A stretch of 21,525 nt of DNA. Source: Conexivisphaerales archaeon. GTDB lineage: Archaea > Thermoproteota > Nitrososphaeria > Conexivisphaerales > DTJL01. Made by a program: the position numbers and the translations under genes. The notes below the pieces were generated by a model that did not search any database, was not told the origin of the DNA, and saw only the letters and a list, made by a program, of their open reading frames with translations. This document shows, one piece after another, positions 244-16,030 of this stretch. Position 1 is the first letter of the stretch; every line of letters starts with the position of its first letter. The stretch spans positions 1-21,525 of the forward strand of contig JBEKZX010000024.1 in assembly GCA_049509455.1 (NCBI GenBank). Direction: 5' to 3'.

Positions 244-270
244 CGTGGGCTTGGACCTGCGAATGGGCTG
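244..270 (+). repeat. Dispersed site copy 1 (exact core 247-262)
   Basis: cgtGGGCTTGGACCTGCGAatgggctg. Confidence 0.97.
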
Positions 271-346
271 CTCGTTCATCTTCACATTAATGAGAACAGT
301 AGGTTAACTGAGCGGGTGCGGGAGATCTAAATAACAGCCTCACGAT

Positions 347-1054
347 GTGTGTCTCCCAGGGGGATGCATCATGACCACCACCCGGCAGGCCGGCTTGTAC
401 GGTGAAATAGCACTCGTCCCGTTGATGTTCATTTTGATATTCCAAGTGATAGGTGCCCTTCTCGCCCCAAACGGCTTCTATTGGGGTAGGGACTCGCAGC
501 TGGCCGTCTGGTTCTACCTGTCCGGTGGCGGCAGGCTCAATCTCCTGGCGCTTCTCCTGATTCCGATCGCCCTTGTGACCGTAGTTTTCCTCTACCTTGC
601 CTTTAGGCGTCTTTCGGAGGCCGCATCGGAGAATGGGATTTGGAGTAACGCCCTGTGGGCTGTCGCCTTCCTGTTTCTGGCCGGGGTTGCTTCTCCATTG
701 CAGCTCTTCCACGCCAACACTAACATCGTCAACGGCGTCTTGGTCGCCTATGGTCCCACCTTCGATCCATTTCTGTTCACTGTCGGCCTCATCGAGACTT
801 GGGCTCTCCCAGTAGTTGCCACTGTTTTCATCTGGAGGAGCTTCAGTCTTGTCACCTCCAAGTTGAACGTCAGATGGTTCCGCCTGGCGGGCGGGCTTCA
901 GCTCGTCGCCGCCGTGGCCCCCATCGAAGCTCTAGGGTACGCCACGCTGGCACCGTATCCTCTTCTCTTCTACTCGGTTTCGACACTTCTATCATTCGTG
1001 GTGGTCGCGCTCCTCCTGATCGGCTTCAATGAAGTGCGCAATCTGAGAGTGTGA
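347..1054 (+). CDS. Multi-pass membrane protein of unknown function (true start may be ATG 371)
   Basis: 235-aa ORF with about 6 hydrophobic segments; sole gene between site copies at 247 and 1114. Confidence 0.8.
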   Translation: MCLPGGCIMTTTRQAGLYGEIALVPLMFILIFQVIGALLAPNGFYWGRDSQLAVWFYLSGGGRLNLLALLLIPIALVTVVFLYLAFRRLSEAASENGIWSNALWAVAFLFLAGVASPLQLFHANTNIVNGVLVAYGPTFDPFLFTVGLIETWALPVVATVFIWRSFSLVTSKLNVRWFRLAGGLQLVAAVAPIEALGYATLAPYPLLFYSVSTLLSFVVVALLLIGFNEVRNLRV

Positions 1055-1113
1055 TATCGTCACATCGATTATGACGGTGCGAAGCGCAACAAGCCCCGGG
1101 CGGGCCCCGCCCT

Positions 1114-1141
1114 AGGCTTGGAGCTGCGAATATGAGCTGAT
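1114..1141 (+). repeat. Dispersed site, near-exact copy (core 1114-1129, 14/16 match)
   Basis: aGGCTTGGAgCTGCGAatatgagctgat; carries the right arm as ATGAGCTGAT. Confidence 0.9.
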
Positions 1142-1319
1142 TGTGTCTCGATACCCATACGAGGGATTCGTGTGACCATGCGACCGAAGGCTCACGGGCT
1201 TGATAACTCCTGGACTAGTCGTCGTTGCCAACGACTTCACAGTCAGCCGGCAGCATGTAGGCAGCTGTAAGTGAAACCATGTGATTAAATTGGTGTGGTT
1301 GGGACGGTCCACACCTAGA

Positions 1320-1667
1320 TTGTAGGACGAACTCCTTATCGGGACAACTACTCTCAGTAGAGGCGGAAGAACGGCCGTTCCTAGTGAGGTAATGGAATTG
1401 TTGGACCTGAGATACTCACCTCACAAGAGGGAGAAACTGCTATGGACGCAGAAGGGGGATGAGATCGTCGTCACCAAAGGAACCCCCCAGTCGAGTTACC
1501 AGAAAACAATCCTAAGCAGAGGTGGAGGGGCGGCCGTTCCTAAGCACATTAGGAAAGCGTTGAAACTCGATTCTGCTCTCGACAGGCAAGAGAGGTTGAT
1601 TTGGATACGAAAAGGGGATGAAGTCATCGTTAGGAAGGGAACCCCTCCGTCTAGACCCACCGAATAG
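1320..1667 (+). pseudogene. Tandem AbrB/MazE/SpoVT-like swapped-hairpin DNA-binding protein with TAG at codon 2
   Basis: The frame upstream of ATG 1392 reads TTG-TAG-DELLIGTTTLSRGGRTAVPSEV. This matches the internal repeat KTILSRGGGAAVPKHI. EKLLWTQKGDEIVVTKGTP and ERLIWIRKGDEVIVRKGTP are also duplicated. Confidence 0.65.
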
Positions 1668-1714
1668 CTCAGATTGAAAGTAACCCAAAGCGACCAGCTG
1701 ACGCGAACGAGGAC

Positions 1715-1733
1715 ATGGGCTTGGACCTGCGAA
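1715..1733 (+). repeat. Dispersed site copy 2 (exact core 1717-1732)
   Basis: atGGGCTTGGACCTGCGAa; right arm not conserved. Confidence 0.97.
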
Positions 1734-1800
1734 AGCGGGATAAATGTGAGCAATCCAAATAAATCTATCTGACAACAACGCCGCTAACGAGGGCCACATT

Positions 1801-2724
1801 TTGATCGAAACCGAGAACCTCACGAGGAAGTTCGGTGACCTGACGGCCGTCGACAACGTGAGCCTTAAGGTGAACGAGGGAGAGGTCTTCGGATTCCTCG
1901 GACCCAACGGAGCTGGAAAGACGACCACCGTCAGAATGCTCTGCTGCCTGATATCAAAGACCAGCGGTGATGCAAGGGTTGCTGGCTATGATGTGGGCAA
2001 CGAGGCGGACGCACTAAAGATAAGGAAGCTCATCGGATTGATGCCTGACAACGTAGGTCTCTACGAAAGCCTCAGCGCCTATGACAACCTGGACTTCTAT
2101 GGGAAGCTCTACGACCGTACAGAACAGCAGAGAAAGGAGAGCATACAGCGCTTCCTTACGATGTTGGGACTTTGGGAGAGGAAGGACGTCGCAGTGGGCA
2201 CTTACTCGAAGGGGATGAAACAGAAACTGGGGATTGCGTGCGCCCTCATACACGACCCCCAGATACTCTTCATGGACGAGCCCACGGCGAACCTCGATCC
2301 AGAGTCTGCTAAGGTCGTCAGAGACTTCATTCTGGAGCTCAAGAAGGAAAAGAGGACCATCTTCCTGAACACGCACAATCTCGACGAAGCGCAGAGAATC
2401 TGCGACAAGATTGCAATCCTGAACACGAAGTTGATGGCGGTGGGCACTCCGGAGGAACTCGAGCGCTCGGTGAGCGCGAGGAAGACCGTGGTTCAGCTCC
2501 CGGAGGTGAACGAAGCGATTCTGAACGCACTGAGAAAATTGCCGTTCGGAAACATGGAGGTCGACGGTAACAAGCTGACGCTTGAAGTCAAAAATCCAGA
2601 AACGGACAATATCGCCATTGTCGACGCTATCTATCAAGCCGGCGGTCACGTCGAATCCGTTACGGTCGTCGGCTCAACCCTCGAGGACGCCTATCTGAAG
2701 CTCGTGAGGCGAGACAGCAAATGA
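1801..2724 (+). CDS. ABC transporter ATP-binding protein (ABC-2/DrrA-type exporter)
   Basis: Walker A GPNGAGKTT, signature YSKGMKQK, Walker B ILFMDE and H-loop LNTH. Confidence 0.95.
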   Translation: MIETENLTRKFGDLTAVDNVSLKVNEGEVFGFLGPNGAGKTTTVRMLCCLISKTSGDARVAGYDVGNEADALKIRKLIGLMPDNVGLYESLSAYDNLDFYGKLYDRTEQQRKESIQRFLTMLGLWERKDVAVGTYSKGMKQKLGIACALIHDPQILFMDEPTANLDPESAKVVRDFILELKKEKRTIFLNTHNLDEAQRICDKIAILNTKLMAVGTPEELERSVSARKTVVQLPEVNEAILNALRKLPFGNMEVDGNKLTLEVKNPETDNIAIVDAIYQAGGHVESVTVVGSTLEDAYLKLVRRDSK

Positions 2725-3467
2725 GACTCTCGAAATCCTGGATAATCGCGTCGAAGGATTTCAAGATATTCTTGAAGAAGAAGTACATAATCTTCTCAGT
2801 CTTTATCATCCCCCTAGCTGTCTCATTTCTCCTTCCGGTCGTGATCTACTATGTCGGGCAGGAAAATGGGGGGAGCGGGATTCCGGCTTCTGAACTCACA
2901 TATCTTCTGCCGGCGCTTACCTTCTTCTACCTCCTCCTAGCAGGCCTGATTCCGACCTCAATCGCCTCCTACAGCATAATCGGCGAAAAGGTCGAAAAGA
3001 GCCTTGAGCGCCTCCTAGCGACGCCCACGACCGATGGTGAAATCCTTCTCGGAAAGGGAATCTCATCGTTCCTGCCGCCCATGGGGGCCATCCTAGTAGG
3101 AGCTGCAATCTACATGGTTCTCATGGACCTGGTCACACATGGTCCATTGGGATACTACTTCTTCCCCAACTGGAACGCTGCTATCATCCTCTTTCTGACG
3201 GTCCCTCTCGCAACGATAATGAGCGTCGAATGGAACGTTATCGTCTCGTCAAGGGTGAGCGATGTGCGGGTCGCGGCGCAAATTGGGATTCTGCCGATTC
3301 TTCCCTTCGCAGCGGTCTACGTCGGTGGCGAACTAGACGTGATACAACTCGGCAGCACAAGCAACCTCCTCATCATAGCCGGCATTATTTTGGCGGTTGA
3401 CCTGCTGCTCCTTTACGTTGCCCGAGCTACGTTCCGCAGAGAGGAGATACTCTCGAAGTGGAAATGA
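2721..3467 (+). CDS. ABC-2 type transporter permease
   Basis: ATGA overlap with the ATPase gene; SIIGEKVEKSLERLLATP motif; about 6 TM segments. Confidence 0.92.
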   Translation: MRLSKSWIIASKDFKIFLKKKYIIFSVFIIPLAVSFLLPVVIYYVGQENGGSGIPASELTYLLPALTFFYLLLAGLIPTSIASYSIIGEKVEKSLERLLATPTTDGEILLGKGISSFLPPMGAILVGAAIYMVLMDLVTHGPLGYYFFPNWNAAIILFLTVPLATIMSVEWNVIVSSRVSDVRVAAQIGILPILPFAAVYVGGELDVIQLGSTSNLLIIAGIILAVDLLLLYVARATFRREEILSKWK

Positions 3468-3519
3468 ACGAAAGCTGTGACCGTCGTTCTCAGGACCTGC
3501 GAGCGTAAATCCGAGGGAT

Positions 3520-3548
3520 CGTGGGCTTGGACCTGCGAACGAGCTGAC
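3520..3548 (+). repeat. Dispersed site copy 3 (exact core 3523-3538)
   Basis: cgtGGGCTTGGACCTGCGAacgagctgac; a half copy GGACCTGCGA lies at 3493-3502. Confidence 0.97.
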
Positions 3549-3567
3549 TGGCTCATCTCATAGCCGC

Positions 3568-3804
3568 CTATAAAGTGGGTTTTCTGATGGCTTTTCTGGC
3601 AATTAGAAGAGAACAGGCGTCGTGCGACGAGCAATACTTCTCGCATTGGCTTGCAGTCTCCAAGTCCGAATACCCTAGACCGCAGATGCCGCAATAATAC
3701 ACTGCGATGCCTTCTTCTAACCTTGATTCGACCGTCTCGCCCGCACCCTTCAGTATCGTCCTATGTCGCCTTCTTATGGATGATGGGGTACTCATGAGAG
3801 CCAC
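3568..3804 (-). CDS. Small Cys/His-rich, probably Zn-binding protein
   Basis: YCGICGLGY...QCEKYCSSHDACS pattern; start codon uncertain. Confidence 0.65.
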   Translation of the reverse strand: MALMSTPSSIRRRHRTILKGAGETVESRLEEGIAVYYCGICGLGYSDLETASQCEKYCSSHDACSLLIARKAIRKPTL

Positions 3805-3860
3805 CTCTAGGGCATCGTCTTAGGCTTGGACATTTCATTTTGGATACCTGTCGCTGTTAG

Positions 3861-3887
3861 AAAAAAAATCCTCGGTCTGACCGAGGA
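3861..3887 (-). terminator. Hairpin plus T8 terminator-like element downstream of 3971..4711
   Basis: Perfect palindrome TCCTCGGTC-T-GACCGAGGA (3869-3887) next to A8 (3861-3868), i.e. hairpin then U8 on the minus strand. Confidence 0.6.
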
Positions 3888-3970
3888 CTACGACTCTCGC
3901 TTAATCATCTTTGACATATTGAAATCAACCTACAGTCAGTAGGTGGGCGTAATGGCCTCGGCCTTCATGG

Positions 3971-4711
3971 TTAGAGCTGAATGTAAGCATAGCTTAACCC
4001 GCTCAGCCCCACGATGGAGACATCATACACGCCGAACAGACACGGTGGTCGCACGAAGATAACGGAGGAATAGTTGATTTGCGTCAACGATAGGCCGACC
4101 GCAAAAGGAATCCAAGTGCACGCCATGGGGACGGCCAAGAGATAGTCGCCCTTGGAGGCGGCTGCCGAGTTAAAGGTGAAGACGAACGTGGTCGTCTGGG
4201 TCAGGTTCCCCTCTATCACGTCGGGCATTGCGGTGACGCTGACGTCCGGAGTCTGGTCGAAGGTCATGGTGCCCCCCCATGTACCGGTCTGGATGTCCCA
4301 AAGGCCCACGGAAGGGTCGAGCGTGCCATTCAACATGTAACCCTGCACCGACGGTGAGTAGGCGAACGTGATACTGGCCACTGAATTCGCCTGCATCAAC
4401 AATACTAGCGACCCTGAGGTGCCGTTGGCTGTTGACCCAGTCAAGGGAAGTCCCGACGGGAACTCCAGAGGAGTGGATGTGCTCGTGGAGCTTGTGGGTG
4501 GCGGTGTGTTTGTGGAGGTCGATATGCTCGTGGATGTACTTGTGGATGGGAGCGTGCACGTGGAGACTGTGGATGGAGGCGTGCTTGTGAGTGGAGATTT
4601 GCTCGTGGGTGGAGCTATGCGTGGGAAGGACATGTAAACGGCCCCACCGACGGCCAGGACCAGGACGGCTGCGACCACTGTCACAAGCGCCGTGCTCACC
4701 CCTCTTCTCAA
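3971..4711 (-). CDS. Membrane-anchored/secreted protein with Ser/Thr/Pro-rich linker
   Basis: N-terminus MRRGVSTALVTVVAAVLVLAV resembles a class III signal peptide; STTP-rich stalk; beta-rich C-terminal domain. Confidence 0.8.
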   Translation of the reverse strand: MRRGVSTALVTVVAAVLVLAVGGAVYMSFPRIAPPTSKSPLTSTPPSTVSTCTLPSTSTSTSISTSTNTPPPTSSTSTSTPLEFPSGLPLTGSTANGTSGSLVLLMQANSVASITFAYSPSVQGYMLNGTLDPSVGLWDIQTGTWGGTMTFDQTPDVSVTAMPDVIEGNLTQTTTFVFTFNSAAASKGDYLLAVPMACTWIPFAVGLSLTQINYSSVIFVRPPCLFGVYDVSIVGLSGLSYAYIQL

Positions 4712-4821
4712 ACCATCTCTATGGGAAGATAATCCCCGATAACTCTTAAACCTAACCCTTGGGCGATTCCGTTAACTCATCTGCACGAGGCGAATTTGAG
4801 AGTGAGCCCCAAACGTCAGGA

Positions 4822-4827
4822 TTATAC
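4822..4827 (+). promoter_or_regulatory. TATA-like box for 4851
   Basis: TTATAC 24-29 bp upstream of GTG 4851. Confidence 0.45.
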
Positions 4828-4850
4828 GCCAGCATTCTCTCATCGCTGGT

Positions 4851-5291
4851 GTGTCACAGCGACGGCCCGCACTCAGCGCACGAAGGATTGCTCTAGTCCT
4901 GATTGTTGCGGCCATGGCCGTTGCGGGGGTCTATGCAGTGACCTCTCGGAAACCCGTCGTCGCTTACCACGATATCTCCGTAAGCGGACTTTCCCTCTGT
5001 GTGAGCGATTGTGGTGTCTACCCTGCGCCTATGGCTGAGGGAATAGTCAACGTCAATTCGACTGCGCCCTTGTCAACTCTCGGGGTATATGTCAACAATA
5101 CGTTCAACGGCTTCATGATTCAGAATCCTGCCACATATAGGACGACGGGGGCTGTCGGATACATGTATAAGGAGGGCCATTTTCCCAGCTCGATTCCCGT
5201 TGTTCCTGGGGACACATACGTATTCACCTTCACCGCTACGTTTCAAGATGGAAGCAAGGCGACGGTCAATGAAACTGTAGTCGCAAACTAA
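4851..5291 (+). CDS. Secreted/membrane-anchored beta-sandwich-like protein
   Basis: Basic N-terminus plus hydrophobic helix; C-terminal VPGDTYVFTFTATFQDGSKATV strand pattern. Confidence 0.8.
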   Translation: MSQRRPALSARRIALVLIVAAMAVAGVYAVTSRKPVVAYHDISVSGLSLCVSDCGVYPAPMAEGIVNVNSTAPLSTLGVYVNNTFNGFMIQNPATYRTTGAVGYMYKEGHFPSSIPVVPGDTYVFTFTATFQDGSKATVNETVVAN

Positions 5292-5397
5292 TCCCGCAAC
5301 ACATTCCAAAAAGGTTCTGGGAAGTCCATGGTTGGCGACTCCCCCCGTGAAAAATCGGTTGATGGCAGACTCAAAAACGCTGGTAGGGTCGTTGGAT

Positions 5398-5628
5398 TTA
5401 CGGTGGAGCCGTTAGAAACTGGTAGGATGAGCCACGGATTACGCCTCCAATGTTGGTAAGGAAGAACGTAGTGGAGACTGTGTAGTTGAGTGAAGACTCA
5501 TAGCACCCGCCTGGCCCAATCGTATAGCATATTGTAAGCGGATACTCCTTAGGAATTAAGGGAACGAAGAAGGCGAACAAGACGAGGGCCACTGCGACAG
5601 CCGTAATCGCGAGGTAAGCCCTTCTCAA
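5398..5628 (-). CDS. Small membrane-anchored protein
   Basis: MRRAYLAITAVAVALVLFAFF signal/anchor; TTAAAA about 30 bp upstream on the minus strand. Confidence 0.65.
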   Translation of the reverse strand: MRRAYLAITAVAVALVLFAFFVPLIPKEYPLTICYTIGPGGCYESSLNYTVSTTFFLTNIGGVIRGSSYQFLTAPP

Positions 5629-5675
5629 GCCAAGTATAAGTTGGTCGCACTCCCTTTTAATTCATACTCTTAGGG

Positions 5676-5706
5676 CGTGGGCTTGGACCTGCGAGAATGG
5701 GCCGAC
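5676..5706 (+). repeat. Dispersed site copy 4 (exact core 5679-5694)
   Basis: cgtGGGCTTGGACCTGCGAgaatgggccgac; followed by hairpin CTGGGG/CCCCAG at 5709-5726. Confidence 0.97.
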
Positions 5707-5854
5707 GGCTGGGGGCCCGGCCCCAGATCGGTCTTAAAAGCGGATTGCGAGCCTGATGCAGACTCGGTAGGATCGCGAAATGAGAAACGGTGTTCCGACA
5801 GCTAAGAGTCGGACGCTGTGGGGCCGATTGTGGGTCTCTGTGAGAGGTAGTTGC

Positions 5855-6262
5855 TCAGGAGTGGGACGGCGGCGGCATCATGCTAGCCAGCATTTGGCTC
5901 AGGTCGGGGGTGGAGATGGGGTCATCTTCCACGATCTTCCCCCTGGCGAGACGGTAGTAGGTGATCATTCGGGCGGAGACCTTCTTCCCGCCGATGGTGG
6001 CGTTCATGGTGCCCCGGAATACGACCGCATTGCCTTCGGCCAGCAGGTTCTCGGTCTTGAATTCGCGTACGGGCACGGCCGCCTTCAGCCCGGAGAGCAC
6101 GCCCTTGAAGGCGGCACGGTTGGACGCCCCGTAGGAGCGGTTCACATAGTTAGGCGCGAGCAGCTCGTCGACCGCGTCGACGTTGCCGGCCACCAAGACC
6201 TCTTTGATGAAACGACGGACGACAGCTTTGTTTTTCACGACTGACATGAAGTATTCTCGCAA
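5855..6262 (-). CDS. SnoaL-like ester cyclase / NTF2-fold protein (likely start ATG 6247)
   Basis: NKAVVRRFIKEV...GNVDAVDELLAPNYV...LLAEGNAVVFR...YRLARGKIVE, the typical SnoaL pattern. Confidence 0.85.
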   Translation of the reverse strand: MREYFMSVVKNKAVVRRFIKEVLVAGNVDAVDELLAPNYVNRSYGASNRAAFKGVLSGLKAAVPVREFKTENLLAEGNAVVFRGTMNATIGGKKVSARMITYYRLARGKIVEDDPISTPDLSQMLASMMPPPSHS

Positions 6263-6362
6263 TGACCGTCAACTTGGTGGATATAAGCCTCCTGTCGAAA
6301 TCAACCGAAGGCGAACGTAGACTTGGAGAAGTGCCCAGCCTCCCGGGCCCTCCCCGCTGACT

Positions 6363-6665
6363 TCAGGCAATCGCTGGTGGGAGAGGTTCGCCATTGCGTG
6401 GGCTTGGACCTGCGAAGGACTCGACTTTCCTCTGACGCCCTTTCGTCAGCTCTTCCAGCTTATGCTGCAGATCCTCCACCTTGAGGAAGGCCGGGTCATA
6501 CCAAACATGAATCCTATGGGTGAAACTATTCACATGGGCGCCTAGGACTCCGCCGACGGCCAGCATCTCCTCCTCCAGTGACCGGACCCCCGGTGTGCCT
6601 TCTTCCGTCTCGAGCCTGAGTATCGCCTTAGCCTTCCCATTTGTGTCCCCTGTCGCCATTCCCAT
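6363..6665 (-). CDS. HMA-fold (heavy-metal-associated-like) protein lacking CxxC, reading through site copy 5
   Basis: SLEEEMLAVGGVLGAHVNSFTHRIHVWYDP fits the HMA beta-alpha-beta-beta pattern; FAGPSP near the C-terminus is encoded by the repeat. Confidence 0.7.
   Translation of the reverse strand: MGMATGDTNGKAKAILRLETEEGTPGVRSLEEEMLAVGGVLGAHVNSFTHRIHVWYDPAFLKVEDLQHKLEELTKGRQRKVESFAGPSPRNGEPLPPAIA
6397..6418 (+). repeat. Dispersed site copy 5 (exact core 6400-6415)
   Basis: cgtGGGCTTGGACCTGCGAagg. Confidence 0.97.
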
Positions 6666-6754
6666 CGCATCCGGGCTGTCACCGGATACTTAGAGGGGAG
6701 GTATCGAATGTAGCAAACTGCAATTCTTCACTTGTTCATCACTTCCAAGATAGG

Positions 6755-6760
6755 TATATA
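6755..6760 (+). promoter_or_regulatory. TATA box for 6788
   Basis: TATATA 28-33 bp upstream of TTG 6788. Confidence 0.55.
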
Positions 6761-6787
6761 TCTTGACGAATGTAGATTAGAATTGAA

Positions 6788-7375: not shown

Positions 7376-7419
7376 ACGGCCTGAGCGATCGTCGAAACGA
7401 GGGCATCGTCGCGGGACAA

Positions 7420-7816
7420 GGCTTAAGGTGAATTCCCCTTTCTATGACGTGGGCCAAGGCATGGAGATCTACGCGTGCGCCGTCCTCCAGACCGGCCGAA
7501 CCGAACCCAGAATCGCCTCAGCCATCTTATCATCCTACGCAGCGTTATGCAACCTTTGAAGCGTGTTTGCTGATATCTTCACCAGACCTAGTCTCAAGAA
7601 GAATCGGTCGAAGCTCGCGAACGAGAGGATCTGTTGGTTCAGAAACGTGTTGACGCTGACGTTCCTCCGAGTTGCCTCTTCCTTCGACGCCGCCAGCGCC
7701 GCTCCGTCTATCCTGGAGGAGCGGGTCACCATCTTTCCATGCTCCCCAAAGACGATGAGCGAGTGGCACTCCGGACATATGACCGTGCTCGGCACCGGTC
7801 TTCTGTACAGTCCCAT
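7420..7816 (-). pseudogene. Decayed inverted paralog of 6788..7375
   Basis: MVTRSSRIDGAALAASKEEATRRNVSVNTFLNQQILSFASFDRFF aligns with the intact gene. TAG (7535-7537) falls at the Ser of AAASDEE. Removing 20 nt (7497-7516) restores DDKMAEAGLEDG, matching SDEEAAKIGSEDG. The left end of the feature is approximate. Confidence 0.75.
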
Positions 7817-7912
7817 GTGGTTCTTTTAGGTTGCAGACGGTTCACACTAGTCACAACGAATACGCCCTGTTCAAGTAGGCTCATCCGGCCAACGAAGGTG
7901 AGGTAACACGGT

Positions 7913-8425
7913 ATGACTGATATGGTCGTGCTGGCGTTCGACAACATCGACGCCGCTAACAACGTGAAGCACCAACTGATTGAGCTCAATGCAGAATTCC
8001 TGCTAAAGCTCGACCAGGTGGTAGAGGTGGTCAGAAAGGCCGATGGCCAAGTCAAGATCAAGGAGGAGCCAAGGCTTACCGGTGCCGGGGCATTAGGCGG
8101 CGCCTTCTGGGGCCTTCTGGTAGGGCTCGTATTCCTTGCTCCAGGGCTGGGGCTTGCCTTCGGGGCTGTCTCAGGCGCCATCGTGGGTCATTTTGCCAAG
8201 TATGGGATCAGCAAGGAATTCATGGGCAAGATCAACGAGGCAATCAAGCCGGGAGAGTCCGCTCTCTTCATCCTCGCAGAGGATGTCAAAGCCGACAGAG
8301 TAGTTCCGATGCTCGTCCAGTATCATCCAAGGGTCCTCAGGACTTCCCTTACGGCAGCGCAGGAGGCGGAGCTTAAGGAGGCGTTCGGAATCTCGAACAA
8401 CGCAGTCAGCGCGCCCGCCAAATAG
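7913..8425 (+). CDS. DUF1269-family membrane protein
   Basis: GAGALGGAFWGLLVGLVFLAPGLGLAFGA glycine zipper; IKPGESALFILA; PRVLRTSLT...EAELKEA. Confidence 0.88.
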   Translation: MTDMVVLAFDNIDAANNVKHQLIELNAEFLLKLDQVVEVVRKADGQVKIKEEPRLTGAGALGGAFWGLLVGLVFLAPGLGLAFGAVSGAIVGHFAKYGISKEFMGKINEAIKPGESALFILAEDVKADRVVPMLVQYHPRVLRTSLTAAQEAELKEAFGISNNAVSAPAK

Positions 8426-8442
8426 CAAGGAGGAGAAGATAG

Positions 8443-8871
8443 TTGGGAAACAACATTGAGGAGAAGGAAGCCAAGGAAGGGGCGGCCCTCAGGGCGGAGA
8501 TTTCGCATCTAAAGGGAGAGGTCTCACGTCTGAAGACGGAGTTGGCCAATTCCGAAGCGAGGGAGAAAGCCAAGCTCGAGGCCGAGCTCGCGAGCCTGCA
8601 TCAGAAACTGCAGGCAAAGGTGACGGAGGCGAAGCTCAAGTCGGAGAGCGAGGAAAAGATGGCCCGCGCAAAGGTGAAGGCCCAGGTCAGTGACCTCGAA
8701 GGCAAAGCGAGCAAGGCGAGAGCCGAAGCCAAGACGACCATAGAAAGGGAGTCCAAGGCCCGAGCTGAGGTCCTAGAGGCGAAGGCAGCAAAGGCACAAG
8801 GCGAGGCGAAGGCGCGCCTCGAGAAAGGGATCGCCGACGTTCGGAAGAAGTCAAAGAAGGCCGCTGTCTAG
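8443..8871 (+). CDS. Ala/Lys/Glu-rich coiled-coil protein
   Basis: Heptad-rich sequence; AGGAGG at 8428-8433 before TTG; operon position. Confidence 0.8.
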   Translation: MGNNIEEKEAKEGAALRAEISHLKGEVSRLKTELANSEAREKAKLEAELASLHQKLQAKVTEAKLKSESEEKMARAKVKAQVSDLEGKASKARAEAKTTIERESKARAEVLEAKAAKAQGEAKARLEKGIADVRKKSKKAAV

Positions 8872-9465
8872 TTGAACCCACTCAGGCAGCCTGGCTGGCT
8901 CCGAGCCCTTGAAGTCTTCACCGGCGTGTCAAGCATTGCCCTTGGAATACTGGCGCTCGCTTTTCCGGGTTTGAGCGTCGCCGCTCTCGTCGTCCTGCTC
9001 TCGATCGGCCTCATCTTCGTAGGGATAAGGTCGATTTCACTGGTAGCCTTCAGCGGCCTCTCCATGGCATTGAGGGGGATTAGTGCTGTAGCTGGAGTCG
9101 TATCGATAGTCCTCGCCGTGGTGGTCTTGGGCTTCCCGGGATACGGCGCACTGACTCTGGTCGTATTCCTGTCGTACGGCCTGGTGGTTTACGGATTCAG
9201 CAGGATCTACCTCGCCTTCGCTGTCAAGGCTGCGCCCGGATGGCTCAGGGCACTAGGTGCTGTCGTGGGCGTCCTCGATGTCATCTTCCCTGTAGTTGTG
9301 CTCGCCCTTCCAGGCCTGGCACTCTTGACACTCTCTGTCTTGCTCTCCCTGGCGCTGCTCGTCACTGGTGCAGAGATCCTCGTCTCGGGGGTGGTGGGCC
9401 GCACCTGGCTCGGAAACTTGGTGAAAGACGTTTCAGATGTGAGTAAGGAGATCGGAAAGGTCTAG
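8872..9465 (+). CDS. HdeD/DUF308-family membrane protein
   Basis: Internally repeated PGWLRAL...GV.SI..GILALAFPG units; abuts the previous stop codon. Confidence 0.8.
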   Translation: MNPLRQPGWLRALEVFTGVSSIALGILALAFPGLSVAALVVLLSIGLIFVGIRSISLVAFSGLSMALRGISAVAGVVSIVLAVVVLGFPGYGALTLVVFLSYGLVVYGFSRIYLAFAVKAAPGWLRALGAVVGVLDVIFPVVVLALPGLALLTLSVLLSLALLVTGAEILVSGVVGRTWLGNLVKDVSDVSKEIGKV

Positions 9466-9634
9466 CGTCTGCAGTAAGCTCCCTCTCCAATCTCTTTCCT
9501 CCGAGGTCTACAATGCTAAATCATCGAGAGATCTGTTGTAGCGAGGACCATCAGCTCGCGCCAAACCTCTTCTGCTAGGAGAGCACGTCACCTCAGCTCA
9601 AGCATCTGCCACGGGAGTCTCTCAGGTGCCTCAC

Positions 9635-10144
9635 CTATTCGATGGCATACTTCTTCGAAAGGCGTTCTGTGGCCGAGTGGTTGATCAGGGGGCCGTTTGA
9701 CAGGTTGGAATTGCTCACGACCGCGAGCGTTCCCGAGTCTGATTTTATCCATGTGTTCCTCAGGGCGACCCGCACGACCCTCCCCTTTACCGCGCCATAT
9801 TCGACGACATCGTTCAGACGTATGACTCCGTCATGGAAGAGAAGTATACCTGAGATGATGTTGGAGAGCGAAGTCTGCAAGGCGAGAGAAGTTGCGAGAG
9901 CCCCGACTCCAGAGAAAGTCAGCAGTGTGAACTCCGACGCCGCACCTGTCAGGCCAAGGATCCCAGAGGCGACTACGAGAGCCGCCACCACCCTCAGGCT
10001 CGCCCTGATATCGCGGATGACCGTTCGACCTGCCTTTGCGTTCTTAGCTGCGCGCCCGATTATCCAATTGATAGACTCCTCAATCGCGAAGGTTCCGACG
10101 ACCAGCGTGATGGAGCCAATCACTATGCCCGTCTCTGATACCAT
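9635..10144 (-). CDS. Small MscS-family mechanosensitive channel domain protein
   Basis: SLALQTSLSNIISGILLF...IRLNDVVEYGAVKGRVVRVALRNTWIKSDSGTLAVVSNSNL. Confidence 0.88.
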   Translation of the reverse strand: MVSETGIVIGSITLVVGTFAIEESINWIIGRAAKNAKAGRTVIRDIRASLRVVAALVVASGILGLTGAASEFTLLTFSGVGALATSLALQTSLSNIISGILLFHDGVIRLNDVVEYGAVKGRVVRVALRNTWIKSDSGTLAVVSNSNLSNGPLINHSATERLSKKYAIE

Positions 10145-10172
10145 TTCGAGCGGTACTGCGCGGTGTTAGTAC

Positions 10173-10178
10173 TTAAAA
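10173..10178 (-). promoter_or_regulatory. TATA box for the MscS-like gene
   Basis: TTTTAA on the minus strand, 29-34 bp upstream of ATG 10144. Confidence 0.5.
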
Positions 10179-10285
10179 TGAGAGGAGAAACGGTTCAACT
10201 CCAAGTGGTCGTCCAGCGCCCATTCTACTTTGTATAGCCGTTCCTGCTGGAAAAGACAACGGTGTTATCAACCGCCAATCCAGAA

Positions 10286-10315
10286 CGTAGGGCTTGGACC
10301 TGCGAATGGGCTGAC
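10286..10315 (+). repeat. Dispersed site copy 6 (exact core 10290-10305)
   Basis: cgtaGGGCTTGGACCTGCGAatgggctgac. Confidence 0.97.
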
Positions 10316-10414
10316 TCAGTTTTAAGTTTGCCCAACCTGTAGTTTAGGCAAACAGTACTAGTCGCTCATTTGGAGTCTTGGAGTGGCTTCTTAGACAAAC
10401 CCAGTTTTGTTACG

Positions 10415-10438
10415 CGTGGGCCTTGAGGCTGCGAATGG
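10415..10438 (+). repeat. Degenerate site copy
   Basis: cgtGGGCcTTGaggCTGCGAatgg. Confidence 0.6.
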
Positions 10439-10485
10439 CGAGGAATTCGCACATCTCGTCAGCAGCTCCAGTCCTGCGAAAGTCC

Positions 10486-12423
10486 TTAGTCCAGTCCAAG
10501 CCTCTTCAGGAGGTCAAGATACCTTGGGTCGTTGCGAACGCCATCAAGGTCCCAGTCCCATTTGATGTCCAAGAGGGAATCTTCTCGCCTAGAATAGGAC
10601 TTCTCCAGCCACTCGAACCCCTTGTCGACTTCGCCGAGGTAGAAATGGAAACCGGCAATGTTATAGGAGTAAAATGGAGTTTGGCCAAGGTGGGCCTCTA
10701 CCTTAGGCAGAAGCTCTCTGACCCTATGCTTGTCGCCTTCGAAGTAGGCACCATACGCCTCGGCCGCCGTCCTCATCGAAGGATACATGCTCTGAAGATA
10801 CTCGACCCCGGCCTCCATTTCGCGTCTCATCTCTTCAAACATCTTCATCATGCCATAGGCGCCAGCCATATCTCCGTGAGCGCCTTCAAACCCCAATTCG
10901 AGGGCCCGCCTGTACGGTTGGAGCGACTTGGCAAATTCTCTCTTGGAGAAGTATAGGTTCCCGTGGTTCAAATTGATCACCGGTGATAATGGGTCCAGTT
11001 CCACTGCCTTCTCTATCTCCCTCTGAGCTTCGTCCCATCTCAGCTCGGACCGCAGGACCCAATAGTACCACTGGTGAGCGGTGGCGTAGCTTGGCTTAAG
11101 CTCGATCGCCTTCCTGTACTCCTCCTCCGCCTCGTGGAGCTTGTATTCCGATCTCAGCAAATATCCCCTCGTGGTGTGTGCTTCGGCTAAGGAGGGATCG
11201 AGGCCCAGGGCCTTTGCAACCATCGCCTTTGCCTTCGCCAGGTTCGCTTCGGGGTCGACGTTCCAGTTGTTGCGGAGCAGTGCTGCGCAGTCCGCCTGTC
11301 CAACGTACCCCAGAGCGAAGACGGGGTCCTCCTTCGTGGCCTCTTCGAAGAAATCGGAGGCCTTCTTGAGGTCGTCTAATCCTCTCCTATTCCAGAGATA
11401 CCTCCCCTTCAAGTAGAGGGTGTAAGCCTTGGTGCTCTCCGTCGGCTTCCTCCCAATCCGTTGCATCTCCGGCAGGAGAATCTTGACACGAAGGGCATCT
11501 GCCACCTGTCTCGCGATGTCGCTTTGGACCTCGAAGACGTCATCCAGGTTTCTATCGTAGCTCTGAGCCCACAGATGTTCGTCGCCAGCCACGTCGATGA
11601 GCTGGGCGGTCACCCTGATCCGATTTCCTGCCTTTCGGAAGCTCCCTTCGAGCACCGACCCCGACTTCAGCTCTCTTCCGATTTCTCCGATCCTCTTGGT
11701 CGTTCCCTTGTATCCCATTACGGAGGTCCTTGAAATCACCTTAAGGCCGCTGATTCCGGAGACTGTTGAAATGATCTCTTCCGTTATCCCTTCCGCGAAG
11801 AATTCGTCGTTAGGGTCCGGGCTCATGTTCCTGAAAGGAAGGATGGCTATTCGGTCACGCGGGAGATCGATCTCCTCCTTGGAGACTTGCGGTGGTTGCT
11901 CCCACGGCATCACCATCTTGAAGACTTCGAGGGGTGCACTTACATTCTTCAGCGGCTTCTCCCCTAGACTCGCCATCTGCAGCTCGGTCTTGTTCGCAAC
12001 CTGGTCGTAGACTTGGCGAGACAGACACACTCCGCCGTCTTCGGCCAGAGGCTCTATTCTCGATGCGACGTTGACGGCATCACCCGAAATGTCTCCTCGT
12101 GATTCCACGACTTCTCCAAGGTGGATTCCTACCCTGAGATGGATTCTCTTATCCGAAGCAAGGGAGAGGTTGAACTCCCTTATGGCCCTCTGAATGTCGT
12201 ATGCGCATCTCACGGAATCAATGGCGTTCGGGAACTCCACAAGGAAGGCGTCGCCGATCGTCTTCACCTCCCTGCCATTGTGTCTCTTGAGAATGGGTCT
12301 GATCAGATTCCGCTGTTCTTCGACCAAGGCAAGAGATAGGGTTTCGTCTCTCTGCCCGAGGGCGGTGTAGCCTACCATATCTGTGAACATAATCGCGGCC
12401 AGTCTGCGCTGCCCCTCTGACAA
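10486..12423 (-). CDS. Class III adenylate/guanylate cyclase fused to a TolB-like domain and TPR repeats
   Basis: RRLAAIMFTDMVGY, KTIGDAFL, LRVGIHLGEV and DISGDAVNVASRIE catalytic motifs; IAILPFRNMS...FFAEGITEEII domain; TPR helices. Confidence 0.93.
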   Translation of the reverse strand: MSEGQRRLAAIMFTDMVGYTALGQRDETLSLALVEEQRNLIRPILKRHNGREVKTIGDAFLVEFPNAIDSVRCAYDIQRAIREFNLSLASDKRIHLRVGIHLGEVVESRGDISGDAVNVASRIEPLAEDGGVCLSRQVYDQVANKTELQMASLGEKPLKNVSAPLEVFKMVMPWEQPPQVSKEEIDLPRDRIAILPFRNMSPDPNDEFFAEGITEEIISTVSGISGLKVISRTSVMGYKGTTKRIGEIGRELKSGSVLEGSFRKAGNRIRVTAQLIDVAGDEHLWAQSYDRNLDDVFEVQSDIARQVADALRVKILLPEMQRIGRKPTESTKAYTLYLKGRYLWNRRGLDDLKKASDFFEEATKEDPVFALGYVGQADCAALLRNNWNVDPEANLAKAKAMVAKALGLDPSLAEAHTTRGYLLRSEYKLHEAEEEYRKAIELKPSYATAHQWYYWVLRSELRWDEAQREIEKAVELDPLSPVINLNHGNLYFSKREFAKSLQPYRRALELGFEGAHGDMAGAYGMMKMFEEMRREMEAGVEYLQSMYPSMRTAAEAYGAYFEGDKHRVRELLPKVEAHLGQTPFYSYNIAGFHFYLGEVDKGFEWLEKSYSRREDSLLDIKWDWDLDGVRNDPRYLDLLKRLGLD

Positions 12424-12511
12424 CCCTTGTCCCGTGCTCGTACGAGTTCACCCGAAGATAAAACCATTTGCAGACTCTCAGATTGGCCCATTTCTGTCAG
12501 AATCTCAGGAG

Positions 12512-12538
12512 GTGGGCTTGGACCTGCGAAATGGACCG
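12512..12538 (+). repeat. Dispersed site copy 7 (exact core 12514-12529)
   Basis: gtGGGCTTGGACCTGCGAaatggaccg; flanked by CTCAGG (12504-12509) and CCTGAG (12540-12545). Confidence 0.97.
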
Positions 12539-12561
12539 GCCTGAGCAGGGGAGACTCTGCC

Positions 12562-13314
12562 TTAACCTCTTCTGGCCACACACACGATCGACGGACTCTT
12601 CTCGACGAAGGGCACTTTTGCGATGCTTCCGAACACGTCCTGGACTATGTAACCCGTCCGTTCAAGCAATCCCACGAGTTCATCTTTGAAGATGTAGCGG
12701 AGGCGGAACTGGAGCAGACGCCTCTTCACGACGCCGTTCGGACTTACGAAGTCGTAGATCATCGTCGCATCGAACGACTGATTCGGTTTGTCGAACTCTT
12801 GAGAAGAGAGGCAAAGGAGGGTCTGACCTTTGACTTGTTTCACGTGGTCCAGCCTCAGCAGCTGCGACGGCCTATCCGGGTTGGGGTTGAACACTTCGAG
12901 AAGAAGGAGCCCGTCGGGTTCGAGGTGGTCGCAGACGCGACTGAGCGTGTCCTCCTGGTCTTTCACAGTCAGGTTGTGGAGGAAGGAGGCGAACGGTATG
13001 AAGGCCATCTTGAACTTCTGGTCGAGGCGGAAGTCCCGCATGTCTCCTCTTACTATGCGAACCCGTCTTCTCGTAGGTGGTTCCTCTTTCGCAAGCTTCC
13101 TCCTGAAGACGGCGAGCATTCTTCTGTTGATATCTAGCCCCGTTATCTTCAGCCCTGCTTGGGCGATGGGTATGGTGACCCTTCCGGTCCCGCAAGCGCA
13201 CTCGAGGATGGGCCCGCCGCACTTGCTGGCGTATTCGAGATAGAACGGGATGTCGTCTGTCCTGTCGTAGAAGAGATCGTAGAAGCTCGCCTCCACGTCA
13301 TATATGTCGGCCAA
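12562..13314 (-). CDS. Class I SAM-dependent methyltransferase
   Basis: ILECACGTGRV motif I, ITGLDIN, VRGDMRDF; sole gene between copies 7 and 8. Confidence 0.93.
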   Translation of the reverse strand: MADIYDVEASFYDLFYDRTDDIPFYLEYASKCGGPILECACGTGRVTIPIAQAGLKITGLDINRRMLAVFRRKLAKEEPPTRRRVRIVRGDMRDFRLDQKFKMAFIPFASFLHNLTVKDQEDTLSRVCDHLEPDGLLLLEVFNPNPDRPSQLLRLDHVKQVKGQTLLCLSSQEFDKPNQSFDATMIYDFVSPNGVVKRRLLQFRLRYIFKDELVGLLERTGYIVQDVFGSIAKVPFVEKSPSIVCVARRG

Positions 13315-13401
13315 TTCTACTTCAACAGCTGGAAATGCTGAGTGTCCTGTCCCTCATAAACGGTACTTTCCCGGAATGGCTACAGGCGCTAGCAGTTCAG
13401 A

Positions 13402-13434
13402 CGTGGGCTTGGACCTGCGAAGGAATGGGCTGAC
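13402..13434 (+). repeat. Dispersed site copy 8 (exact core 13405-13420)
   Basis: cgtGGGCTTGGACCTGCGAaggaatgggctgac. Confidence 0.97.
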
Positions 13435-13599
13435 CACGCGGAGATAACTCGGATATCTATTGCTGCCGGAAAAGAGATCAATGACACTGGAGAGGCGTCT
13501 TGCATGCGATGCTAATGAAGCTGCGGCGAACGAGCCCTTCTTCTTAGTCGATTCCAAGAGGCAAGGGGATAAATCCAAGGCTCAAGCAAGAAAGAGTGC

Positions 13600-14373
13600 A
13601 TGTTCCACTTTGTCAAGGTGATGGCTGCGGTACTGGTCATCCTGGGTCTTGCGGGAAGCTCCGTGACCGGATACGTCCTCATCAATTCCAGCTACTTCCT
13701 TTCACCTCTCGATAGGGATTCGCAGCTCCTGTCGAACGTCTCCCTCCCCACGACCATCAGCGTCGACCTATCGAACGCCTCCGAGAGCATCAGAGCCGTA
13801 GGGGATTCTCTGCCAGAGTCGATCTCCGTCAACCTGTCCAGCTCTGCTCAGAGCATCAGAGACGTAGGAGACTCCCTGCCAGAATCGATTACAGTAGATC
13901 TATCCAACACCTCCACGAGCCTTAGGAATATGGCAGACTCTCTTCCTAGCTGTATTTCCGTATCTCCCTATGGCTGTGTGTTTGATTTGACGGCTACGAA
14001 GGCGGCACTTTACAACATATCTGACTCATTGAACAACGTGACCGTCAATACAGGTCTAGACGAGTCTAAGGCGGCTCTCTACAACCTATCTGACTCGTTC
14101 GACAACATAAGCGTCAGTGCAGGCCTAGAGAGCACGAGGGTGGCACTCTACAACGTATCTGATTCATTGAGCAACATAGAGGTTACCACCGATTTGGGAA
14201 CGGTTCAGGAGCAGCTTCAGCAAGCTGCACCAACACTCATTCAGTTCAAGGAGGACACGATCATCTTGCTCTCGATTCTCTTCGCTGTGGGCGTGGCCAC
14301 ACTCTTGACAGGAATAGCTCTTGTCCTATTGGTTAGGGACATCGAGAAGATGAGGCAACCCCCCCGGACCTAG
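13600..14373 (+). CDS. Surface protein with N- and C-terminal TM helices and 22-23-aa internal repeats
   Basis: Repeats such as SLPESISVNLSSSAQSIRDVGD and SFDNISVSAGLESTRVALYNVSD; ATAAAT at 13569-13574. Confidence 0.85.
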   Translation: MFHFVKVMAAVLVILGLAGSSVTGYVLINSSYFLSPLDRDSQLLSNVSLPTTISVDLSNASESIRAVGDSLPESISVNLSSSAQSIRDVGDSLPESITVDLSNTSTSLRNMADSLPSCISVSPYGCVFDLTATKAALYNISDSLNNVTVNTGLDESKAALYNLSDSFDNISVSAGLESTRVALYNVSDSLSNIEVTTDLGTVQEQLQQAAPTLIQFKEDTIILLSILFAVGVATLLTGIALVLLVRDIEKMRQPPRT

Positions 14374-14464
14374 ACCAGTCGAAGTCATCGGTCGAAGGCT
14401 CGAGAGGAGAAGCATCGTTTATTGTTGAATTCGTTGCATCAGGATTCTGCGTTCGAGTAGGAAG

Positions 14465-15178
14465 CTAACCCTTCTGTTGCGACGTCACGACTGCTGAAAA
14501 GACGTGATTGCCGCAGTCGGAAAGAACCCTGGTAACCTCGACGGTACTCTGTTGGCCTGCCGGAACATAATACTTGTTAGTCCAGATGGATGAACCGTCC
14601 GACCTGAAGGACACGTTAGCGTATCCACTCACCGGCCCGCTATTCACCAGTATGAATGAGAAAGTCACCTGTTCAGAACACGTGTTCCCTACAATGTAGA
14701 AGTTGACATCATTGCCTGAGCCTCCAGTTGTCGAGAAGGTCCCCGTCACCTGTCCACCTGCAATCAGCGCAACCGTGATATCCTTTGTCTGGCCAGCGTT
14801 GAGAGAGACGGCAGTGCTGTACTGTTTGCCTGCCACGCTGTAGTTGACTGTCACGTACTTCGAAGAGAAGGTCGAGAACGAGTTGTCGAAGGTCAAGTAG
14901 TAGCTACCCGCCAAGGTCGAAGTGTAGCTGAATGAACGCGATCCTGAAACCGTTCCTTGATCCTGAACTGTTTGAGTGACTGGGCTTTGAACAGGCTGAT
15001 TCACATTAAAGGCTGTCAACTGGATGTTCGGCTGCTGCAGCAAGTAATAGGCTGCCACTCCACCAACAGCAACCAGCACCACAACTACCACCGCCGCAAC
15101 AATCCAAACCATCCGCCTGCTCTTGGGAGCTTGCCTAGCCCCCTTAGGCTTCTCTTCCGCCACAGGTAGAAGAAACAC
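14465..15178 (-). CDS. Membrane-anchored protein with GOLD-like beta-sandwich (likely start GTG 15163)
   Basis: TM helix followed by GSYYLTFDNSFSTFSSKYVTVNY, which resembles the GOLD/p24 motif; TTAAAC at 15188-15193 fits a start at 15163. Confidence 0.75.
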   Translation of the reverse strand: MFLLPVAEEKPKGARQAPKSRRMVWIVAAVVVVVLVAVGGVAAYYLLQQPNIQLTAFNVNQPVQSPVTQTVQDQGTVSGSRSFSYTSTLAGSYYLTFDNSFSTFSSKYVTVNYSVAGKQYSTAVSLNAGQTKDITVALIAGGQVTGTFSTTGGSGNDVNFYIVGNTCSEQVTFSFILVNSGPVSGYANVSFRSDGSSIWTNKYYVPAGQQSTVEVTRVLSDCGNHVFSAVVTSQQKG

Positions 15179-15276
15179 GGCCGTGCAGTTTAAGCATTTG
15201 TTAATGAGGCGGAATGGTTATCCATGCCTAAGAGAAAGCCGTGGTTTGAACATAGCATCCTATGTCCCTGTCTGAT

Positions 15277-15981
15277 TCAGATGAGATCCAGAATCTTGCG
15301 GGGGACCGTATAGGTGGCCCCACAGAACTGGCACTTTCCCGTGGGCTCTTTGCTCTTCAGCGGGATGGCCGCCCCGCAAGTGGGGCACTTGATTTGGAGC
15401 GCACCGTCCTTGAAGTCGAAGCTGGCTGCGATGTTGTAGTTGACGGTCTCTCGCTGCATCAGGTTCTTGCTGACATAGCTCTGCCCATCAAATATGCCGT
15501 CAACGACACCGCTGGCGATTAGAGACTCTATCCTTCTCTTCCCATCTTGGAACCCGTTGGGTAAGCCATAACGACTGAGGATTGAGCAGACATCAGCGAC
15601 GCTGACTCTCTCCCTCGACTTCGTCAATTGGATTACCTCCCTTGCCCCTTCTTCTTCGTTCTTGACTGTCTTTATGGCCCAAACGAGGCGGTCGTAGCTA
15701 CCCAAATCCGAAGACTCGAAGCTCAAGAGATACTCATTTCCGTCTGGGTATGTCAAGTCCAACCTGACTACCTGCTTCTTCAAAATCAGACCCGTCAGCT
15801 ACTGGTCGTGACCGTGGATGCATCCATAAGGGAACCTGAGCTGGATCTGTCCTCGTGACACGAGTTTGAACTCTCTGATGTTCCCGTCGTAAGTGAAGAG
15901 GGCATCCATCTTATCGAAGTAGGAACGATTCCTGAAGATAGTACAGCCGCCGCCAATCAGGTCGATAGAGTCCACAGTCAT
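15277..15981 (-). pseudogene. Protein with C-terminal double Zn ribbon, split by an in-frame TAG at 15799-15801
   Basis: ORFs 15799..15981 and 15277..15783 are in the same frame (...HGHDQ*LTGLILKKQVV...); C-terminus CPTCG...CQFCG. Confidence 0.75.
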
Positions 15982-16004
15982 TGTCGAGTATCGAGCGAAC
16001 TATT

Positions 16005-16030
16005 AGCTTTGTCCCTGCGAAGAATAGCCG
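16005..16030 (+). repeat. Degenerate site copy at the right end of the array
   Basis: agctttgtcCCTGCGAagaatagccg; 11/16 core match plus a partial right arm. Confidence 0.45.

Follow-up and report, generated by a model that had tools for sequence, protein, structure and literature searches.

Integrons are the textbook platform for single-gene capture: co-oriented sites, specific to a species or genus, bound small cassettes of unrelated accessory genes, cassette gain, loss and sharing take place at the site, which splits so that each neighbour takes one part along, and most arrays have no adjacent integrase. Other arrangements come close to this layout. In the pdif/Xer modules of Acinetobacter plasmids, short sites (28-bp dyads of 11-6-11, in alternating orientation) flank movable modules that carry no recombinase gene. 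Integrative and conjugative elements (ICEs) of the ICESt1/ICESt3 family are said to accrete in tandem, with integrase-less cis-mobilizable elements (CIMEs), at attachment (att) sites. From archaeal metagenome-assembled genomes (MAGs), integrons and clusters of attC sites lacking integrases (CALINs) have been reported, attC-type only and mostly as CALINs (Ghaly et al. 2022, PMC9668308). Do archaea also arrange cassettes around other sites? The subject of this work is contig JBEKZX010000024.1 of a Conexivisphaerales archaeon (GCA_049509455.1; the contig is C58 in our numbering and its 21,525 nucleotides are called the window), in which plus-strand copies of one 16-mer, GGGCTTGGACCTGCGA, separate gene-sized modules. 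A preliminary description, made from the letters of the window alone, saw here an archaeal gene capture and shuffling platform with its own site. The own site and the movement of modules are borne out, and the single platform gives way to many dispersed arrays. The comparisons below support a real gene-cassette system with its own site, seen at the population level and belonging to one genus. The 16-mer is probably the core of an asymmetric, genus-specific recombination site that delimits mobile gene cassettes exchanged between co-oriented sites.

The full site reads CGT, the 16-mer, zero to four A or G residues and an ATGGGC box. In an alignment of 178 distinct contexts, drawn from the source genome, its relatives and metagenomes, the consensus block is (ga)CGT, R-GGCTTGGACCTGCGA, 0-4 A/G and ATGGGC, followed by a weaker yGAC; the core is conserved far above the arms, and the invariant block is only about 25 nt long. 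A TGGGCT(TG)GAC-like unit occurs twice in the block as a direct repeat, and there is no dyad symmetry. Is it part of a protein? All three frames are in use where the motif is read through, and the spacer varies from 0 to 4 nt; a coding motif is rejected on both counts, and the sites are thus non-coding. Some sites are extended by conserved arms, an upstream U1 of about 55 nt, a downstream D1a of about 50 nt that includes a small palindrome, and the hairpin element H; upstream and downstream arm families combine freely. The H element forms mini-cassettes without a gene, such as that at 10306-10417 of the window.

How does such a site compare with those already described? The likeness to integrons, above all sedentary chromosomal ones, and to CALINs lies in the layout: co-oriented genus-specific sites bound small cassettes of unrelated accessory genes, the site is where these are acquired, lost and shared, each neighbour takes one part of it along, most arrays lack an adjacent integrase and, on our reading, a site-specific family of insertion sequences (ISs) parasitises the site. 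The site itself is different, being about 25 nt, asymmetric and built of direct repeats, with no folded palindrome and no R or L boxes. An R''-L''...L'-R' hairpin with RYYYAAC and GTTRRRY ends is not present, which agrees with the preliminary description, and an attC-like hairpin was rejected: minimum free energy folds of the sites are inconsistent, and an inverted partner of the core is not enriched within 150 nt on either side of 186 sites (mean longest match 5.95, against 5.81 in shuffles). A search of the window against Rfam gave no RNA family at E<=1. Cassette genes here point in both directions, many of them with a TATA box of their own according to the preliminary description, the arrays are many and dispersed, and there is no IntI/attI/Pc platform; the window contig has no PF00589 gene, and no IntI/attI lies beside its array. 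The pdif modules share with the archaeal ones the short flanking sites and the lack of a recombinase gene in the module. Their sites are alternating dyads, whereas the archaeal sites are co-oriented and, judged by eye on the consensus, arms around any central 6-8 bp match at only 3-4 of 11-13 positions. With neither the attC structure, nor the IntI/attI platform, nor a dif-type dyad, the array is not a member of those families. Accretion of ICEs and CIMEs offers a further parallel, in that direct repeats of one att core lie between elements, small integrase-less units would need an integrase in trans, integrase-bearing segments bounded by sites occur (on contigs C59 and C35 of the relative G002) and arrays lie near tRNA genes or their fragments. 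The archaeal units, however, are much smaller, at 0.1-4 kb, and reach much higher numbers, with dozens per genome and at least 15 loci. The repeated core does not coincide with the 3' end of an adjacent tRNA, and the site is not tied to one integrase family.

Do the modules move? Five genomes sample the genus, whose habitat is peat soil and which belongs to the Nitrososphaerota: the source genome G000 (2.05 Mb, 140 contigs) and G001, G002, G003 and G004, the last a contiguous relative in 10 contigs. G000 was also compared with peat metagenome contigs of the same population, such as L145, L161 and L190. Within this population, cassettes are present or absent exactly at sites. A 1.4-kb cassette of contig C112 (sites 117 and 1537) is absent from L145 and a 1.1-kb cassette of C93 (sites 8034 and 6932) from L190, and each time the one site left is a hybrid of both. 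L145 also joins the C112 array directly to window position 244 onward, at 99.9% identity; the left neighbour that site 1 has in C58 differs and is 95.6% identical to a stretch of C2. Three or four different cassettes (C3:4693, C112:117, L145:94 and in G004) follow downstream of one and the same upstream flank. Seven of the 16 interior synteny breakpoints between metagenome contigs and G000 (at >=95% identity) fall within 25 nt of a site, against 2.4% expected.

Cassettes are also common to species. The cyclase-TPR cassette at 10436-12520 is 93% identical to a stretch of G002:C1, both flanks being unrelated; the homology begins just past a degenerate site and stops inside site 8. Inside G000, window 244-1109 (site plus DUF996 gene) has a 92% identical copy in the array of C98, and the upstream flanks differ right up to the CGT. 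Between species, cassettes are 90-93.6% identical, compared with 82-87% for a well-conserved 20-kb core block, which points to exchange within the genus. Conserved gene order across the sites in relatives would have spoken against the idea of a shuffled array; what the relatives present is an order that is not conserved, with modules recurring elsewhere and homology ending at the site.

Where in the site would the exchange take place? Joints were compared that share one flank (at least 93% identity over 80 nt) and not the other. With a common upstream flank, differences between the cores are confined to positions 11-15; the one exception, at position 1, comes from a pair with flanks of only 95% identity. 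Where only the downstream flank is common, the differences lie at positions 1, 2, 4, 5 and 9, and it is with the downstream side that the spacer and ATGGGC box travel. Every informative joint (about eight are independent) is compatible with one exchange between positions 9 and 11 (...TTGGAC/CTGCGA). This favours, and does not prove, site-specific exchange over homologous exchange between repeats.

The probable mechanism behind these patterns would be as follows. Cassettes of 0.1-4 kb, with one or a few accessory genes in either orientation, or none, would be inserted, deleted and exchanged through recombination between two co-oriented sites. Strands would be exchanged at core positions 9-11, the left part of the site staying with the upstream cassette and the right part of the core, the spacer and the ATGGGC box moving with the downstream one. 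Serial insertion would build co-oriented arrays, located in the flexible genome and partly in islands beside tRNA genes. A dedicated recombinase acting in trans, most likely the tyrosine integrase of a co-resident integrative element, would catalyse the exchange, presumably by way of a circular cassette intermediate.

In the window itself, the eight exact copies of the preliminary description (247, 1717, 3523, 5679, 6400, 10290, 12514 and 13405) were all recovered, on the plus strand only, as was its 14/16 copy at 1114, a plus-strand match with two mismatches; the spacings it gave between sites are correct, and its statement that the minus strand has no copy holds at up to three mismatches. 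The expectation by chance is 0.28 matches, and 0 of 100 shuffles attained nine. The two degenerate copies it proposed fared differently. That at 10418 is real, with a 1-nt insertion and substitutions, and closes a 128-bp gene-less unit; that at 16005 is weak, with 5 of 16 mismatches and the right half alone intact, and by itself cannot be told from chance. Gene contents were labelled with Pfam at E<=0.01, which agrees with the proposed membrane protein (DUF996), ABC pair, cyclase-TPR and methyltransferase genes and gives no support to the 'AbrB-like' and 'SnoaL' assignments. The features are, in order:

244..272, plus strand: site 1, CGT + exact 16-mer (247-262) + ATGGGCTGCT box; its left neighbour differs in a population variant
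244..1109, plus strand: cassette 1, consisting of the site, D1a and the DUF996 membrane-protein gene (347-1054)
263..311, plus strand: D1a-type downstream flank, of a family of about 21 copies in G000, with a small palindrome inside
1114..1129, plus strand: site 2, two mismatches
1717..1732, plus strand: site 3, exact
1733..3522, plus strand: ABC cassette, with ABC ATPase (1801-2724) and ABC-2 permease (2721-3467) by Pfam
3523..3538, plus strand: site 4, exact
5553..5678, plus strand: U2-type upstream flank, four copies in G000
5679..5694, plus strand: site 5, exact
6400..6415, plus strand: site 6, exact
7514..9472, plus strand: three-gene block of DUF1269, coiled-coil and DUF308 genes, 90% identical to G001:C27, flanks unrelated
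10238..10289, plus strand: diverged copy of the U1-type upstream flank, the element targeted by an IS110-family IS in G004
10290..10305, plus strand: site 7, exact
10306..10417, plus strand: gene-less mini-cassette, H element, hairpin with a 7-bp stem; many copies in G000, G004 and metagenomes
10418..10434, plus strand: degenerate site, 1-nt insertion
10436..12520, minus strand: cyclase-TPR cassette, gene 10486-12423 (Pfam), 93% identical to G002:C1
12514..12529, plus strand: site 8, exact
12530..13404, minus strand: methyltransferase cassette, gene 12562-13314 (Pfam)
13405..13420, plus strand: site 9, exact, the last clear site; metagenome contig L161 begins here (its position 5 is window 13405)
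13451..13487, plus strand: solitary U1-type element, 30 nt past site 9, with no core after it
16005..16020, plus strand: possible decayed site, 11 of 16 matches, right half intact

The intervals 3523-5679, 6400-10290 and 13405-16005 hold more than one gene each. Degenerate site-like remnants lie 25-70 nt outside the homology of the three-gene block, and paralogues of the ABC pair (about 70% identity) occur in other arrays of all five genus genomes. The copy at 16005 may be the end of the array; from about 16.6 kb on, the genes of the window are syntenic with G001.

Is the motif a feature of the window or of the genome? G000 has 69 copies at up to two mismatches (25 exact) on 31 mostly short contigs, and the reversed control has none. 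Neighbouring pairs are co-oriented in 36 of 38 cases (P=3e-9). The copies are clustered: contigs of at least 35 kb, 39% of the assembly, hold one of the 69, and only 10 of the 69 fall within open reading frames (ORFs) of at least 150 aa, although such ORFs make up 68% of the copy-bearing contigs. A search with the 15-mer in 40 relatives, four of the same genus and 36 from other genera, found 12 copies in G001, 26 in G002 and 44 in G004, and none in G003 or the 36 genomes of other genera; the motif is genus-restricted. Among the matches listed from a scan of 185,579 species genomes with the 15-mer, single chance hits predominated. Viral contigs gave no match. In G004 there are 65 copies at up to two mismatches, in at least 15 clusters, of which contig C2 alone holds 26 in two stretches totalling about 95 kb, and the strand of the motif flips several times inside one contig. 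This clustering and these repeated flips mean that the motif is neither evenly spread nor polarised by replichore, which disposes of a reservation in the preliminary description. Its other reservation was that long reads might fail to span the sites, as in an assembly chimera at a repeat. Arrays are embedded in 286-576 kb contigs of G004 and were met again in peat metagenomes that had been assembled independently, which means that they are no chimeras of a single assembly. At L010:9896-10626 (G004:C2:103895-104625) two arrays stand head to head, their two opposite sites 700 bp apart and the U1 arms facing inward, with a 50-aa basic zinc-ribbon-like ORF and an 88-aa ORF between them. G003 has an intergenic repeat of its own on contig C34 (L014:428-547, 6152-6194 and 7424-7545), about 120 nt long with a perfect 6-bp inverted repeat around an 8-nt centre; it occurs in six copies genome-wide and adjoins homologues of the cyclase and ABC cassettes. 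This palindromic repeat may be the counterpart of the H element, not of the core.

Which enzyme could act on the site? The preliminary description placed the recombinase outside the window and pointed to the array end as the place to look. In one case an integrase does lie there, and a consistently linked enzyme did not turn up. Integrases of PF00589 are few in the genus genomes and not consistently near arrays; G000 has one intact match (C100, beside a tRNA) and one gene split over contigs. Across the five genomes there is a single serine recombinase (PF00239), in G004, and no SSV-type integrase (PF16795) and no Cas1 (PF01867). G000 and G004 each have one IS605-type element with a Y1 transposase (PF01797), neither near a site, and no TnpB was found near sites. 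The five genomes also gave no match to the Y2 family of IS91 (PF04986), a search made uninformative by control genomes that equally lacked a match. The array-end case is G002:C59, where 13 densely packed sites form an array whose end is 0.7 kb away from a divergent tyrosine recombinase of 395 aa. The gene for this protein lies within a 9.6-kb site-bounded segment whose remaining genes have no Pfam family; on G002:C35, a segment of 12 kb between sites contains an integrase of 476 aa. The 395-aa protein was rejected as the cassette enzyme: its nearest relatives, only about 42% identical, are spread widely over Bathyarchaeia and other groups, and searches of G000, G001 and G004 gave no orthologue.

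The split gene of G000 deserves attention too. C90 ends in 122 nt that it shares with the start of C75 and also with the end of C132, an assembly fork, and C90 joined to C75 gives an intact 377-aa tyrosine recombinase beside tRNA-Arg(TCT), 0.66 kb from the site at C90:9942. The gene is made up of C90:10620-10970 and C75:1-905 (alternatively C132:4801-5705), the first 301 codons exist in two variants of 90% DNA identity, each beside tRNA-Arg(TCT), and the integrase is separated from the site by an Alba gene (C90:10108-10410). Among ten ORFs from integrase loci, its best matches are the two G002 integrases at 23% identity (E 1e-13 to 1e-14). The integrases are too distant from one another and too irregularly placed for any to be named as the cassette recombinase. 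The ten ORFs, which include an overlapping one on the opposite strand, were made into a hidden Markov model; searched with it, 190 kb of array contigs from the metagenomes yielded no additional integrase, and no recombinase-like domain was found in the abundant array cargo (ABC pairs, DUF7347 winged-helix, cNMP-binding, NHL and MFS proteins).

The neighbourhood of tRNA genes offers some orientation. In three species, arrays have tRNA-Met or a 3' fragment of it nearby, and at least some arrays are thus inside tRNA-linked islands. A 3.2-kb two-cassette block common to G000 and G004 at 93.6% terminates in the last 15 nt of tRNA-Met. The block contains two ChrB_C genes, an MFS transporter, a site and a 214-aa ORF; the tRNA is complete in G000 (C2:14751-14824) and present only as a fragment in G004 (C2:112991-113005, L140:992-1006), and the fragment looks like a scar of island integration. 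Could the core itself be a tRNA-fragment att site? This was considered and rejected. Read as its reverse complement, the core agrees at 13 of 16 positions with the T-arm of tRNA-Glu(TTC) on G000:C100, which is not significant (E 0.73, 28 tRNAs), and the core is unable to form a T-arm; the resemblance is kept as a lead only. An integrase adjoins this tRNA (C100:2951-3027), whose T-loop reads TCCAAAT, with C in place of the usual U55, and several other G000 tRNAs have 18-21 nt in common with its T-arm.

IS110-family transposase genes of the DEDD type are found 0.2-0.7 kb from sites, three copies in G004 and one on G000:C52. The G004 element is 1.3 kb long, with subterminal inverted repeats and a 363-aa protein with DEDD and Transposase_20 domains (Pfam). 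Its three copies sit at one point of U1, between ...TATTGCTG and CTGGAAAAG..., 42 nt upstream of the core and in site orientation; one copy is interrupted by stop codons. The two domains, and insertion in one orientation at one fixed sequence, identify it as a member of the family:

L134:4225-5520 (G004:C3:189224-190519), L135:2997-4295 and L136:1345-2709, site orientation: G004 IS copies

A second, different IS110-family gene (G000:C52:30330-31252, L137:4330-5253) lies at a contig end and abuts a D1a arm, to which the small palindrome beside it belongs. There is a precedent for such targeting: IS1111-attC elements, members of the IS110 family, are described as targeting integron attC sites (PMC11187229). 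The likeness concerns the parasitic IS only, with its subterminal inverted repeats, single orientation and fixed position in an arm of the site, and does not extend to the cassettes; in G004 the targeted arm is U1, at a point 42 nt upstream of the core. We read these elements as probable parasites of the arms of the site, and their insertions as indirect evidence that the arms are conserved, repeated, functional DNA.

What else could produce such arrays? Several observations weigh against a dedicated recombination site. The joints that place the exchange number only about eight, with a roughly estimated P of about 0.02 if crossovers were spread evenly over the conserved block. U1 or D1a arms are present at a minority of sites. 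None of the five genus genomes has a recombinase consistently adjacent to its arrays, the integrases that do lie near sites are mutually distant (about 23% identity), one of them standing at tRNA-Arg like an ordinary island integrase, and the site lacks the dyad symmetry that tyrosine and serine recombinases have in their core sites. The contigs examined included no circular cassette. One alternative would be a dispersed non-coding repeat, regulatory, structural or similar to a miniature inverted-repeat transposable element (MITE) of the form U1+core+D1a, whose modules are shuffled by ordinary homologous recombination or replication slippage between co-oriented copies, with no dedicated recombinase. 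Such a repeat would go with the failure to find a linked recombinase and with direct rather than inverted repeats in the site; longer conserved arms and gene-less units do resemble a small repeat element, and deletion between direct repeats likewise preserves co-orientation. Yet an invariant block of about 25 nt is short for homologous recombination, every informative joint fits one exchange point, and the core is far better conserved than the arms, as expected of a recombination core. Cassettes with both flanks unrelated still carry the site, and a MITE leaves unexplained why the gene content between copies differs between relatives; nor is there the palindrome of a repetitive extragenic palindrome or MITE. 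We consider this explanation unlikely, although it is the strongest competitor of a site-specific cassette system.

Could the IS110 elements themselves move the cassettes? A DEDD recombinase of the IS110/IS1111 type, with a bridge or seek RNA, tolerates asymmetric sites and exchanges at a short core. The archaeal site is asymmetric, family members lie within 0.7 kb of sites, and the mapped exchange point adjoins a CT dinucleotide, CT being the usual core dinucleotide of IS110. The IS copies, however, have their own ends and sit in U1 or in D1a, not at the core, and the family is common across the order, its distribution does not match that of the motif, and the assemblies of G001 and G002, which have arrays, lack it. 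IS110 as the cassette recombinase is rejected as the leading interpretation, and we give the proposal only a small chance. Smaller still is that of a strand-polarised architecture motif (like Chi or the FtsK-orienting polar sequences, KOPS) or of an assembly artefact at a repeat. Strict local co-orientation and the many copies near contig ends of a fragmented MAG would be in keeping with either; against them, the copies form clusters (in G004, about 95 kb of one contig contain 26 of the 65), with no even spread and no strand switch at origin and terminus but flips within a contig, the motif is nearly absent from large contigs, and arrays are spanned in 286-576 kb contigs and in other assemblies. 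Least credible of all is a classical integron or CALIN whose attC sites were overlooked at first reading. The layout would fit, and both have been reported in archaeal MAGs (PMC9668308), but the inverted core partner is not enriched (5.95 vs 5.81), there is neither a consistent hairpin nor an RYYYAAC...GTTRRRY pair, Rfam is negative, genes point both ways and arrays are many and dispersed.

Three repeats in the window touch none of these questions. Positions 13999-14205 hold three tandem 69-nt repeats (65-74% identity) that encode 23-residue protein repeats in a 257-aa ORF (13600-14373); 18129-18236 holds three overlapping 42-nt copies with a period of 33 nt in a 419-aa minus-strand ORF (17528-18787); and outside the array a 160-nt direct repeat of 76% identity occurs at 16318-16477 and 21131-21290, 4.8 kb apart.

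What would a cassette system with a recombination site of its own mean for these archaea? Next to the integron, a peat and soil archaeal genus organises a visible share of its accessory genome with a quite different site. Its cargo comprises transporters, regulators, signalling proteins and chromate-resistance-like genes; gain and loss of cassettes are seen at the population level, and several species have cassettes in common. The system may represent an undescribed class of cassette capture in the Nitrososphaerota, an idea towards which we are drawn without yet giving it even odds, with a short, asymmetric direct-repeat core that faintly resembles a tRNA T-arm and a recombinase unrelated to IntI or Xer, possibly a guided one or another mechanism working on an asymmetric site. 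A defined site with its exchange point narrowed to 2 nt opens gene-by-gene exchange in archaea to study, and the site is a handle for finding a new recombinase, with possible use as a tool.

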